A stretch of DNA of 64,000 nucleotides from Candidatus Micrarchaeota archaeon (GTDB lineage Archaea; Micrarchaeota; Micrarchaeia; Anstonellales; Bilamarchaeaceae), in the NCBI GenBank assembly GCA_032123335.1, contig JAQBFN010000050.1, forward strand, positions 904 through 64,903, given 5' to 3'. Below the pieces are notes generated by a model. That model searched no databases. It was not told the origin of the DNA and worked only from the letters and a program-made list of their open reading frames with translations. The translations under genes and the position numbers were made by a program. Below, piece by piece: positions 16,443 through 20,273 of this stretch; the stretch's first letter is position 1, and each line of letters opens with the position of its first letter.

Positions 16443-17237
16443 ATGAGCCTGATAGGATTTGAAGAGCCCCTGATAGCGTTTGTAGTCGGCATTTACTCTA
16501 CAATTGAATCAGTCCTGGGTCCGGACCTTACGAATTTCTTTACAACCGCATTCGGAATTTCAGTATATGCAATTATCCTGGGAACATTCTACAATAATTT
16601 CTCCAGGCAGAAATTATTCGTCCTGGAGCGGACCAAGGAGGAAACATTCAAAGACCAGCTAATCCATTACGTTACCCTGATTGCAAAATACACATTCGCC
16701 TTCCCGATAATCACATTCGTGTGGTTCATGTTCCTCACGATTTTCCTGGTCTTCCTTGGAAACCAGGATGTTGCAAATGTAATGTACATCTCCATTGCGG
16801 TGGTTGCCGCAATCCGCATAACCTCATATTGGGATGAAGGGATTGCAGGGGACCTTGCAAAGATGCTTCCCCTGGGCCTGCTTGCCTATTTCATAAGTGA
16901 CCCTTCTTTCCTGGACGCAGCGACGTTTGAAGTGAAGTTCTTTGAGATTACCCAGCTTCTTCCCCTCGCGATTCCATTCTTCATATACATCGTGCTCCTG
17001 GAATGGTCCCTGAGGATACTGCTTTCCCTCTATGACCTCGTGCATCAGTATAAGCATTTTGCACCTGCAGCTGTAAGCTCAAGAATCCCTGAGCGCCCCG
17101 ACCGAAAGGAAAGGGGGCCGAAGCCAATGCCCAAGGTGGAACCCAAGCCAATGCCCAAGGTGGAACCCAAAGCCAAGGGGAAGGAAAAGCCCAAAGGGAA
17201 GAAAGGGGATCTAGAGGACATGGGGCTGGAGGAGTAG
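16443..17237 (+). CDS. integral membrane protein with basic PK-repeat tail
   Basis: About 6 hydrophobic helices. C-terminal PKPMPKVEPKPMPKVEPKAKGKEKPKGKKG. Confidence 0.6.
   Translation: MSLIGFEEPLIAFVVGIYSTIESVLGPDLTNFFTTAFGISVYAIILGTFYNNFSRQKLFVLERTKEETFKDQLIHYVTLIAKYTFAFPIITFVWFMFLTIFLVFLGNQDVANVMYISIAVVAAIRITSYWDEGIAGDLAKMLPLGLLAYFISDPSFLDAATFEVKFFEITQLLPLAIPFFIYIVLLEWSLRILLSLYDLVHQYKHFAPAAVSSRIPERPDRKERGPKPMPKVEPKPMPKVEPKAKGKEKPKGKKGDLEDMGLEE
17121..17168 (+). repeat. perfect 24-nt tandem duplication inside a CDS
   Basis: AAGCCAATGCCCAAGGTGGAACCC at 17121-17144 is repeated exactly at 17145-17168. It encodes KPMPKVEP twice. Confidence 0.85.
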
Positions 17238-17240
17238 GCC

Positions 17241-18125
17241 ATGCGCAACTTATTCATTTTCCCGCTTTTGCTTTCTTTTCTTCTTTTTGCAGGATGTGCC
17301 TCAAACGGCTCAAATGGGGATTCAGCATTCATAGTCCCCTATTTTGAAGATGAGCAGTACTCGGATTTCACCGGGGAAATTGAAAGGTATGTTGCTCCCC
17401 AGCCAGATGAGTATGGGTACACAAATCACTATTATACTATTATGGGATTCGAATGCCCGGATGGCTCCGAACCCGAAGTTGTAACATTTAACTGGGAGAA
17501 CCCATCAACACAGGAGGTTTACCTTGCGGGCTCCCCCAGCGAACCTTTTGCGCATTACCGTGCAACCAACGATGCGGTTTTCACAGTAAAACTGCGTGTG
17601 GATTATGTATGCGAGGGAAGGTCCGAAATATCCGAGGCCGAATCCCAGAGAAAGGGCATCATGCTCTATTTTGCTGAAGAAGGAATGCTTTATGAACAGG
17701 AGGCAATGGCCACCTGCCCCGGGGATTACCTCCCCACACTTATCTCTGAAAAGGACTCAATAGGAAAAGGGACTCCAGTAGGAGCGGATTCGGATGAGGG
17801 GTGGTTTATCACTTCCCACAAGGTAGTGGTTGCGGAACCCTATGATTACGCAATCAACGGATGCGGGAAATACGATGAGCACTGGCTCAACACTTACATG
17901 AGGGAAAGCGTAAACGGGACCCACTGCGAAATTGGTGAATGCAGGGGCTTCTGGCACACCTTTGAGTGCCCGAAGGATAATGCTGAAGGCGTCCGCAGGG
18001 AAGTGTATGCGGGGAAGAACTGCATTTCCGTTTCCCAGCAAAAGGATTTCCGCAGCCCCCAGGAATGGTATAATATTCTCGAGATTCCTGAGTTCCCTAG
18101 TGCAGAAACTACTGGATTCAATTAG
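17241..18125 (+). CDS. putative lipoprotein, unknown function
   Basis: MRNLFIFPLLLSFLLFAGCASNG lipobox. Cys-containing globular remainder. Confidence 0.6.
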   Translation: MRNLFIFPLLLSFLLFAGCASNGSNGDSAFIVPYFEDEQYSDFTGEIERYVAPQPDEYGYTNHYYTIMGFECPDGSEPEVVTFNWENPSTQEVYLAGSPSEPFAHYRATNDAVFTVKLRVDYVCEGRSEISEAESQRKGIMLYFAEEGMLYEQEAMATCPGDYLPTLISEKDSIGKGTPVGADSDEGWFITSHKVVVAEPYDYAINGCGKYDEHWLNTYMRESVNGTHCEIGECRGFWHTFECPKDNAEGVRREVYAGKNCISVSQQKDFRSPQEWYNILEIPEFPSAETTGFN

Positions 18126-18817: not shown

Positions 18818-18844
18818 TAACAAAAATATTTGTAACAACCCTTA
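18818..18844 (+). promoter_or_regulatory. TATA/BRE-like promoter, copy 1 of a perfect 27-nt repeat
   Basis: TAACAAAAATATTTGTAACAACCCTTA is identical to 19143-19169. It contains the A/T box AAAATATTT preceded by AACAAA. Confidence 0.55.
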
Positions 18845-18852
18845 AATTCTAA

Positions 18853-19083
18853 TCCTGTATTCATTGTTATTGCACACTGGCAATACGGTTGCTTTGGCTT
18901 GCTCCGATTGGTTACACTGATTGGGTTGAGTTGGAATATGCATGCAGCTGATGGCTATGTGGGCCTGCCCAGCATGAATTACTAGACCTGCGACTTTTCA
19001 TGCTTTGCCTGCCCTTCCCGTCTGTTGTACGGTCATGCGTTCGTGCGCATCTCCGGCCGCGTCAAAAGTGTGTGTTTCTTTCT
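18853..19083 (+). ncRNA. structured RNA of unknown class, copy 1 (boundaries approximate)
   Basis: No credible ORF. Closing helix CACACT 18873-18878 / AGTGTG 19067-19072. Hairpin AGCATGAA/TTCATGCT (18971-19004) with loop motif GACCTGCGACT. T-rich ends at 19075-19081, then T6 at 19118-19123 and T7 at 19129-19135. Confidence 0.5.
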
Positions 19084-19142
19084 CTATTAAAGTGCAATAT
19101 AAATTTCAAAAATATTCTTTTTTGCTTCTTTTTTTCCTTCAG

Positions 19143-19169
19143 TAACAAAAATATTTGTAACAACCCTTA
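19143..19169 (+). promoter_or_regulatory. TATA/BRE-like promoter, copy 2 of a perfect 27-nt repeat
   Basis: Identical 27-mer located 325 nt downstream of copy 1. Confidence 0.55.
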
Positions 19170-19177
19170 TATTCATT

Positions 19178-19424
19178 GCATATTAACAGTAGGGATGCAC
19201 ACGGACAATTCGGGTGCCTTGGAAAAAGGTACGTTGTTGATACCTCTACCTTGTAACGGCCAGTAATATGGTGGCTGGACCTGCGACTCACCATATGACA
19301 CTCGTGCAAGGCATGTAGATCAATTGCGTGGTTATGTCTGAAGTAGACTGATGAGTTAGGTCCGTAACGGTTTGCTCTATGCATTTCCGACCGAGTCCAG
19401 AGTGTGCATAGTTATCTTTTTTTT
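19178..19424 (+). ncRNA. structured RNA of unknown class, copy 2 (boundaries approximate)
   Basis: Closing helix ATGCACAC 19195-19202 / GTGTGCAT 19402-19409, then GGAC/GTCC. Hairpins GTGCCTT-GGAAA-AAGGTAC (19214-19232) and ATATGGTG/CACCATAT (19266-19296) with loop GACCTGCGACT. T8 terminator at 19417-19424. Confidence 0.55.
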
Positions 19425-19432
19425 GAAGAGTG

Positions 19433-20131
19433 TTACGCCTTATGATGCTTCACGTTGATAGCCGCCCCCGGCTTCAGATTCTTATTCTTAAGCATCCCGA
19501 GCACCTCATCTGCAACTTCCTCCGGCTTATATTCTGCATGCCCCCCATAGAGCTCCTTCCACATCCTGGTTTGAGTTGCCCCGGGACAGACCGCATACAT
19601 CCTGATCCCCTTTCCCTCTAATTCCTGCGCAACCGCTTCAGTAAACCCTACTACTGCAAACTTTGTTCCGCAGTACACCCCAAGCCCCGGGAACCCTGTT
19701 TTCCCCGCCACAGAAGCAGTATTGATTATCACCCCTCCCCTTTTCATGTGCTTTAATGCCTCAAAAGTAGAATGCACCATCCCCCGGTAATTCACATCAA
19801 TCATCAGGTCGATTTGCTTTTTTGTATTTTTTTCCAGGTTTCCTTCGAATGCAACCCCCGCATTATTGAATAGCATATCCAGCTTCCCGAACTTCTTTAT
19901 GAATGTGGAATACATTTTCTTTATGTCCGCATCTTTTGTTAGGTCCACCACAATCGCAAGCGATTTCCTCCCCAGCTCCTTAATCTCCTTTGCAGTTTTC
20001 CCCACTTCTTTTTTGGTGCGCGCAGCAACCGCCACATCAGCCCCGTTCCTCGCGAGCATCAATGCAATCTCTTTCCCGATTCCTCTTCCTCCCCCGGTTA
20101 CGAGGGCAGTCTTATTCTCAAAAAGCGCCAT
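19433..20131 (-). CDS. short-chain dehydrogenase/reductase (SDR) family oxidoreductase
   Basis: TGGGRGIGKEIA (TGxxxGIG), NNAG, and YCGTK (YxxxK) motifs. Confidence 0.85.
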   Translation of the reverse strand: MALFENKTALVTGGGRGIGKEIALMLARNGADVAVAARTKKEVGKTAKEIKELGRKSLAIVVDLTKDADIKKMYSTFIKKFGKLDMLFNNAGVAFEGNLEKNTKKQIDLMIDVNYRGMVHSTFEALKHMKRGGVIINTASVAGKTGFPGLGVYCGTKFAVVGFTEAVAQELEGKGIRMYAVCPGATQTRMWKELYGGHAEYKPEEVADEVLGMLKNKNLKPGAAINVKHHKA

Positions 20132-20198
20132 GCACCTTTTTCAAACTCAAGCTTAAAAATCCTTTTCAGCTTCAACACTAATCCGTATTGTGTAATTT

Positions 20199-20272
20199 GC
20201 CCTTATCGTCTAGCCTGGATAGGACGCTGGCTTCCGGAGCCTGTAACCAGGGTTCGAATCCCTGTAAGGGCG
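20199..20272 (+). tRNA. tRNA-Arg (anticodon CCG)
   Basis: Acceptor GCCCTTA/TAAGGGC plus G73. D-arm GTCT...GGAC. Anticodon stem CTGGC/GCCTG (one U-U mismatch) with loop TTCCGGA. T-arm CAGGG-TTCGAAT-CCCTG. No encoded CCA. Confidence 0.9.
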
Positions 20273-20273
20273 C

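Follow-up and report, generated by a model that had tools for sequence, protein, structure and literature searches.

Paralogous genes for a probable, uncatalogued structured RNA family in a clade of Micrarchaeota

Several bacterial RNAs, among them raiA, OLE, ROOL and GOLLD, are orphan structured non-coding RNAs (ncRNAs): each has its own promoter and terminator, each folds into a covarying multi-helix junction, and their functions cannot be read from genomic context. Y RNAs and YrlA/YrlB are small stable RNAs with a long closing stem, which serve as protein-bound scaffolds and often come from two adjacent paralogous genes. To our knowledge, the universal RNAs aside, very few structured ncRNAs have been described in archaea, hardly any of them from DPANN lineages. 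Here we analyze a gap (18818–19424) in a 64-kb stretch of contig JAQBFN010000050.1, hereafter the window, the source of which is a Micrarchaeota (DPANN) archaeon and whose phosphatidyltransferase has homologs annotated as Micrarchaeota or Micrarchaeia. The gap is flanked on one side by the gene for this phosphatidyltransferase (CDP-OH_P_transf, PF01066) and on the other by a convergent gene for a short-chain dehydrogenase/reductase (SDR; adh_short, PF00106), and it holds shadow open reading frames (ORFs) of 88 aa on the plus strand and 81 aa on the minus strand (19139–19384). The initial annotation saw in it a pair of paralogous structured RNAs, each with its own promoter, that belong to no catalogued class, a view that survived every refutation test named there that was run. 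We regard a real, uncatalogued structured RNA family as very probable. For the best explanation as a whole, namely that the gap consists of two genes of an uncatalogued family of stable, structured ncRNAs with fold-based roles, our estimate is about 0.6.

The two RNAs, both on the plus strand as are all their features given below, are RNA1 (type 1 paralog; 204 nt, 18871–19074) and RNA2 (type 2; 213 nt, 19196–19408). They resemble the orphan bacterial RNAs in being free-standing genes with covarying junction folds and with invariant junction and loop nucleotides suggestive of tertiary structure, and raiA is of similar size (∼200 nt). They differ in that Rfam 15 holds no match for them, the host is a DPANN archaeon rather than a bacterium, the distribution is very narrow, and there is a tandem paralog. 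With Y RNAs and YrlA/YrlB they have in common a long stem closing the two ends and a pair of adjacent paralogous genes, but the new RNA is twice as large, has a four-way junction and, again, matches no Rfam model. No known family fits, and the nearest analogues, raiA, OLE, ROOL and GOLLD, are alike in kind only.

Common fold and compensatory changes

RNAalifold, applied to 12 close RNA2 sequences, returned a common fold in which a 14-bp closing stem (P1-P2-P3) joins the 5′ and 3′ ends and leads into a four-way junction with three arms. From the outside inward, RNA2 has P1 (consensus GCACAC/GUGUGC; 19197–19202 with 19402–19407), P2 (GGAC/GUCC; 19203–06 with 19395–98), an AAU bulge and P3 (UCGG/CCGA; 19210–13 with 19391–94). 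Hairpin A (19216–19230) has the consensus GCCUU-GGAAA-AAGGU; arm B (19231–19329) is long, with three internal loops, a 9-bp apical stem and a 13-nt loop; and arm C spans 19330–19388. RNA1 keeps the closing stem, the junction and arm B with its apical loop. Its arm A is enlarged, and its arm C is reduced to a short hairpin capped by UUCG (the tetraloop of the window copy), CUUG or CUCG.

The end pairings on which the initial annotation built its model are present in the sequence (CACACT at 18873–78 with AGTGTG at 19067–72 in RNA1; ATGCACAC at 19195–202 with GTGTGCAT at 19402–09 in RNA2), and the RNA2 stem goes on with GGAC/GTCC and TCGG/CCGA. So are the two 8-bp apical hairpins with differing stems, and the 11-mer GACCTGCGACT at 18985–95 and 19278–88. 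This 11-mer lies within the apical loop of arm B (CUAGACCUGCGACUU, 18982–18996, in RNA1; CUGGACCUGCGACUC, 19275–19289, in RNA2). It is common to RNA1 and RNA2 in the window but it is not universal: the RNA2 loop is invariant in 12 type 2 sequences, whereas the divergent homolog L050 has CUGGACCU-CGUC, leaving CUGGACCU as the universal part. The structured cores, at 204 and 213 nt, are shorter than the 230–250 nt originally proposed.

Strong evidence for the fold came from comparison of homologs. A covariance model (R1) built from type 2 sequences only found all four RNA1 genes at full length (E = 1e-9 to 1e-4; 3.6e-9 for RNA1 of the window). Among 16 distinct sequences, 97.1% of cells were paired, compared to 32–43% when the partners were slid, and 29 of 64 pairs had changed on both sides; covariation was 0.346, versus 0.05–0.07 with slid partners. 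We similarly analyzed each paralog alone. For RNA2 (13 sequences), 98.2% of cells were paired (28–42% with slid partners) and 21 of 68 pairs had changed on both sides, while the four RNA1 sequences gave 95.8% (32–48%) and 10 of 62. Column shuffles never reached the observed values in any set, the exception being the number of further pair types, a secondary measure, in the RNA1 set (9 of 500 shuffles).

Examples of such changes are found in the closing stem and in hairpin A. P1 reads GCACGC/GCGUGC in L005 and GCACUU/AAGUGC in L050; P2 is GGAC/GUCC in RNA2 versus UGGC/GUCA in RNA1, with pair 8-261 being GC in 12 sequences and UA in four; and in the stem of hairpin A a U-A pair has become C-G. 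Positions that do not vary cluster in the junction, in a UU/UU internal loop at the base of arm C and in the apical loops. The functional strand is the plus strand, because invariant G-U pairs (such as 21-35, 39-131 and 41-129) would be A-C mismatches on the opposite one. An exhaustive column-by-column covariation search for tertiary pairs was swamped by phylogenetic correlation, which separates the L005-type clade from the rest. Judged from these alignments, the predicted fold is maintained by compensatory evolution in both paralogs, in agreement with the compensatory covariation that had been proposed from the two window copies.

Distribution, gene order and expression signals

Homologs were collected from the DNA around phosphatidyltransferase homologs and by scanning GTDB genomes and JGI metagenomes once each for exact patterns. 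Five of the 32 matches in the GTDB scan were genuine, all in Micrarchaeota metagenome-assembled genomes, and the JGI scan yielded genuine metagenome contigs for four of five matches. The 27 bacterial matches of the genome scan, along with L044, are chance matches. One caveat here is that exact-pattern scans undercount: L050 escapes both patterns, while the R1 model recovers this divergent gene at 180 bits. The resulting collection contains 13 distinct RNA2-type sequences (window, L001, L002/L047, L005/6, L007/8/16, L009/10, L014, L015, L033, L043, L045, L046 and L050-52) and four distinct RNA1-type sequences (window, L043, L009/10 and L033). A fifth RNA1 is seen only as a cut 3′ end, where contig L046 begins. 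The RNA family occurs in at least 10 lineages of one Micrarchaeota clade, and on the searches made the family is restricted to that clade. With its filters off, the R1 model found no extra copy in the 64-kb window.

Wherever the region upstream was seen, the RNA comes directly after the phosphatidyltransferase gene, in the same orientation. Such an arrangement was found for the RNA2-type genes of L001, L002, L005-L010, L014 and L033 and of the more distant L050-52; L043, the contig of the P0002 homolog, was not counted among the loci with checked gene layout. The linkage persists down to 66% protein identity to the phosphatidyltransferase of the window (L050). What comes after the RNA differs, and may be tRNA-Arg(CCG), the SDR gene, a Yip1 gene or a small ORF. 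RNA1, where present, is located ∼100 nt upstream of RNA2, and was found only in lineages in which RNA2 is at least ∼90% identical to that of the window.

These observations, together with rates of divergence, set the two paralogs apart. RNA1 pairs are 65–86% identical where RNA2 pairs from the same genomes are 90–95% identical, corresponding to ∼3-fold faster divergence. Every member genome seen has RNA2, the ancestral form, which is single-copy and evolves slowly, and RNA1 is a tandem duplicate confined to the sub-clade closest to the window. RNA1 is not a decaying copy, because its own fold is kept, as the RNA1 pair counts indicate. In two single-RNA genomes (L001, 1553–1580; L002, 4215–4245), the sequence TTCGGRAAAGAGTGTR comes right after the phosphatidyltransferase stop codon and resembles the RNA1 3′ end, CCGNGTCAAAAGTGTGTG. 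This could be what is left of a lost RNA1, in which case the duplication would predate the clade with twin genes, or simply a coincidence.

Alignment of the regions upstream of all genes identified two elements. The first, AACMAA-W5-6-TTGTAR, is an A/T-rich near-palindrome at about −64 to −47; the second is a TATA-like box (CTTAWATT, TTTATATA or TTTAAATA) located ∼25 nt upstream of the RNA, its end ∼22 nt before UGCAC. Both elements are kept before all 17 RNA genes. In the window, the RNA1 promoter region (18818–18849) contains the near-palindrome AACAAAAATATTTGTAAC (18819–18836) and the TATA-like CTTAAATT (18841–18848), and the RNA2 promoter region (19143–19174) contains the upstream element at 19144–19161 and the TATA-like CTTATATT (19166–19173). 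The spacing of the TATA-like box is canonical for archaea, so a transcription start would be expected at the first base of P1 or immediately beside it. The TATA box first assigned, AAAATATTT, turned out to be the near-palindromic upstream element, lying ∼45 nt upstream of the RNA, and it is CTTAWATT/TTTATATA that sits at the canonical distance. We also noted that the upstream element, ∼20 nt before the TATA-like box, occurs in the 64-kb window at the two RNA genes only. Its near-palindromic nature suggests a site for a dimeric transcription factor.

The perfect 27-mer of the initial annotation, TAACAAAAATATTTGTAACAACCCTTA, is present exactly twice (18818–18844 and 19143–19169), with none expected from 100 shuffles; the repeat lengthens to 32 nt with one mismatch, and TATTCATTG comes after both copies. 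As a perfect repeat in the window it stands, but it is not a general feature of the family, since the promoter pairs of L009 and L033 share the consensus only. That the perfect 27-mer is found only in the lineage of the window suggests local homogenisation of the promoters there.

At the other end, every homolog has T-runs of 4–8 within ∼5–25 nt after the 3′ strand of P1. For RNA2 of the window this is the T8 run at 19417–19424, likely an archaeal oligo-T terminator. The run just after RNA1 of the window is weak (TTTCTTTCTCT) and is followed further on by T6 (19118–23) and T7 (19129–35), all within a T-rich trailer (19075–19142) that overlaps a conserved block, AAAGTGCAATAT ... TTTTTTGC ... 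CCTTCAG, before RNA2. The T6, T7 and T8 runs are as originally annotated. L043 and L009 have T8 and T7, respectively, directly after RNA1. Each RNA gene has its own promoter-like elements and T-run, and from these we infer transcription, promoter, terminator and transcript ends.

A similar TATA-like box, CTTAAAAAT, precedes the tRNA-Arg(CCG) gene (window 20151–20273), ∼45 nt before the mature 5′ end. Its position implies a leader of ∼15–20 nt, and hence that RNase P activity is needed by the organism.

Known RNA classes, the loop–loop contact and possible modes of action

At gathering threshold, Rfam 15 identified two tRNAs only in the window, and 15 related loci were scanned in the same way. 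Relaxing the threshold to E ≤ 10 for the gap, L050 and L005 still matched no family, consistent with the class being uncatalogued as first proposed; taken together, these searches returned only tRNAs and inconsistent noise (bxd_1, SNORD10, mir-202, tsr31, mir-92_2 and sn3060). Searches of the DPANN and Micrarchaeota literature on RNase P, non-coding RNA or RNA motifs gave no description of such an RNA.

Type T RNase P RNA has several points in common with the new RNAs: a length of ∼200 nt, ends paired in a P1/P2-like stack, a hairpin right after, and a tRNA gene nearby. Given this, we considered a highly divergent, reduced housekeeping RNA, either a minimal RNase P RNA in the style of type T or a signal recognition particle (SRP) RNA, that the Rfam models miss. 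Such an RNA would account for the ∼210 nt with paired ends, for the presence of one conserved copy per genome beside a tRNA gene, and for the fact that ∼200 kb of clade DNA showed neither an RNase P nor an SRP RNA; the apparent leader of pre-tRNA-Arg likewise calls for some RNase P activity. However, a regular-expression search found conserved region I (CR-I; GNAANNUCNGNG), GGAAAGUC, AAAGUCC and conserved region V (CR-V; ACNNNANNNNGNNUA) in none of the 17 RNAs. RNase P models had no match at gathering score in the window, nor at E ≤ 10 in three divergent members (gap, L050 and L005), and Archaea_SRP had none at E ≤ 10 in the same three. In the nested model there are no free strands at the positions of RNase P helix P4, and no covariation supports such a helix; a possible GGAAA/UUUCC pairing is invariant except in L005-type sequences and RNA1 of the window, where it varies without compensation. 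Nor is the SRP helix-8 motif conserved, as AGCA is found in 8 of 17 RNAs at non-equivalent positions and the apical loops are of 12–19 nt rather than tetraloops. A second, faster-evolving and structurally altered paralog would be unusual for a housekeeping RNA, and no copy was found at the syntenic position in sister lineages. These data make a housekeeping identity very improbable.

Guide RNAs were considered as well. Box C is absent from all 17 RNAs, no kink-turn was seen in the internal loops on reading the alignment, and the only snoRNA matches were weak (E = 0.19–5.6) and differed between homologs. An H/ACA guide was rejected on its layout, which does not fit, the 3′ end being paired in P1. 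For Y RNA and YrlA, there was no Rfam match and no TROVE family among the neighbour genes listed in any locus.

Coding for a small protein, by the 81-aa minus-strand or the 88-aa plus-strand ORF, was considered as another source of the conservation, as was a recent duplication of functionless or mobile DNA. In favor of these are a minus-strand frame of 70–71 codons that runs without a stop from end to end of RNA2 in 10 of 13 homologs, and the tandem arrangement of units with a near-identical 32-nt head. The pattern of substitution argues against coding, with 21, 31 and 30 variable sites over the three codon positions (63 sites each) and hence no third-position bias; moreover, 1-nt indels shift the frame, and stops occur in L014, L046 and L050. 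The conserved small ORF that the initial annotation named as a competing explanation thus does not account for the conservation, while the helices are both conserved and covarying in relatives. Compensatory helix changes, a fixed genomic position, the lack of another copy in the window and the lack of any match in viral contigs, phages and plasmids likewise speak against inert or mobile DNA, and we consider these possibilities hardly credible. The antisense frame of RNA2 is probably a by-product of RNA composition, and as the 81-aa ORF it would trap gene callers.

In RNA2, a strand in the 5′ half of loop B (UGGACCU, 19276–19282) is able to pair with the apical loop of arm C (AGGUCCG in the window, AGGUYCG in general; 19358–19364), forming a kissing helix of 5–7 bp. 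The complementarity noted originally (GGACC at 19277–81 with GGTCC at 19359–63) is kept in all 13 RNA2-type sequences as five core pairs, UGGAC/GUYCG, one position being G-C or G-U and no pair having changed on both sides. The two outer pairs are lost in L005-type sequences and L050. In L050, the 3′ half of loop B has changed from GCGAC to CGUC, and the half that pairs with loop C is unchanged, a pattern that fits an internal contact better than a trans-acting seed. Overall, the kissing contact is probable, in that it is consistent with the sequences at hand, but it is unproven.

Loop B is also the basis for another possibility, a trans-acting antisense regulator in which the exposed apical loop of arm B, GGACCUGCGACU, would be the seed for one or more mRNAs or another RNA and the rest a stabilising scaffold. 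Many archaeal small RNAs act via loop seeds; loop B is the longest invariant single-stranded stretch common to both paralogs, and RNA1 displays it without an internal partner. Yet no complementary site with ≤3 mismatches was found in the 64-kb window apart from the opposite strand of the genes themselves, and an RNAduplex scan returned 536 sites at −14.5 kcal/mol or better, all weak and indistinguishable. The junction and many internal loops are conserved too, more than a simple seed-plus-scaffold RNA would require, and the change in L050 affects the 3′ half of the seed while sparing the half complementary to loop C. We therefore think an antisense role unlikely.

A closing helix, a multi-helix junction with invariant nucleotides and a kissing loop typify riboswitch aptamers, the cobalamin and lysine classes among them, as well as small ribozymes. 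The likeness to these aptamers, which is one of architecture only, extends to the closing P1, the multi-way junction and the kissing contact between adjacent arms, and a short string, GACCUGC, is reminiscent of part of the B12 box. These features would fit a free-standing ribozyme or a riboswitch-like RNA that senses a ligand, in which the junction and the loop–loop contact form a catalytic or binding pocket. In contrast to the known aptamers, the RNA is not upstream of a regulated ORF and is not in a 5′ untranslated region; a T-run comes after it, and the gene beyond is either convergent or a tRNA gene with a promoter of its own. No Rfam riboswitch or ribozyme model matched, and there is no evidence for a cleavage site or a ligand, so a sensor or ribozyme strikes us as rather improbable. 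A riboswitch or leader acting on the downstream gene was rejected outright, since what lies beyond the T-runs is either the convergent SDR gene or a tRNA gene that itself has a TATA box, and no aptamer was matched.

The explanation that we favor is a pair of stable RNAs acting through their fold. RNA1 and RNA2 would be abundant transcripts protected from exonucleases. In RNA2, loop B (UGGAC) would kiss loop C (GUYCG) and clamp arms B and C into a compact tertiary fold, and the RNA would act through this fold, as scaffold or subunit of a lineage-specific ribonucleoprotein (RNP) or as a ligand- or protein-binding RNA, rather than by extended antisense pairing. RNA1, without the loop-C receptor, would present loop B unpaired, and is most simply seen as a variant or a competitor for the same partner. 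We put forward this RNP or tertiary-fold mechanism tentatively, as a possibility with the odds somewhat against it, and the function is in any case one that we infer. DPANN archaea have reduced genomes, which makes it unlikely that a retained gene is idle. Complexity of this order (a four-way junction, a probable loop–loop contact and compensatory evolution) is usual in ribozymes, riboswitches and the cores of RNPs.

Several results weigh against the explanation just given. In single-sequence folding, the terminal stem closes both units as had been proposed, but the folding energy is unremarkable, only modestly better than that of shuffled sequences (z = −1.4 to −2.1), and hence the case for more-than-chance structure rests on comparison with relatives, not on thermodynamics. 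The RNA is absent from the syntenic site and the surrounding 7–15 kb in L003/4 (73% identical protein), L053/54 (65%) and the Bilamarchaeum-like L055-58 (63%). In these sister lineages, the family is either dispensable, relocated or too diverged to detect. The kissing helix shows no both-side change among the 13 RNA2 sequences, and a conserved GGUY at the junction of arms B and C could pair with loop B equally well. In RNA1, GACCUGCGAC is retained although there is no loop C to pair with it, so some additional role must fall to loop B. Finally, the promoters, terminators and transcript ends are predictions from sequence.

In a bolder version, RNA2 would be a new class of catalytic or ligand-/protein-binding RNA with a complex tertiary fold, specific to the Micrarchaeota clade, and in its extreme form the replacement or partner of a housekeeping RNP, with RNA1 as regulatory decoy. 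A non-canonical tRNA-processing RNA would be one example, because of the fixed position beside tRNA-Arg and the pre-tRNA leader. We view this version as speculative and improbable. The paralog pair nevertheless provides an unusual handle on function, as a slowly evolving, complete RNA2 can be set against a fast-evolving RNA1 in which one arm is lost and the conserved loop is kept. More generally, annotation based on exact patterns and Rfam misses such genes in uncultivated archaea.

Neighbouring genes and further conserved elements

The SDR gene (window 19433–20131, minus strand) lies between the RNA and tRNA-Arg in some lineages only, and its orientation differs among them: the gene is convergent in the window, L009, L014 and L033, co-directional in L050, and absent from L001, L002, L005 and L007. 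This variation in presence and orientation indicates that the downstream side of the RNA is a rearrangement hotspot, whereas the linkage between phosphatidyltransferase and RNA is fixed.

Upstream of the phosphatidyltransferase gene of the window are two genes (17241–18125 and 16443–17237) whose proteins have no Pfam match. One protein, of 294 aa, has a lipoprotein-like N-terminus (LFAGC), and the other, of 264 aa, has a lysine/proline-rich repeat tail. L001 and L005-L008 also have a gene of similar size (290–292 aa) ahead of the phosphatidyltransferase gene, immediately next to it in L001 only.

Two other gene-poor intervals were observed. The P0030 lineage has a gap of 800 nt at the equivalent place, and a contig of a more distant member of the Micrarchaeota has 2.1 kb without called genes (L057, 3613–5722), in which the RNA model matches nothing.

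A block of ∼60 nt, (A)GTGCAATAT ... TTTTTTGCMC ... ACKTCRG, is conserved ahead of the RNA2 promoter in every lineage, including those with a single RNA, and lies after either RNA1 or the stop codon of the phosphatidyltransferase gene (window 19085–19142; L001, 1575–1640; L005, 3635–3700; L050, 10625–10690). This degree of conservation exceeds what a spacer or terminator would need, and the block could be a regulatory region or a further small element.

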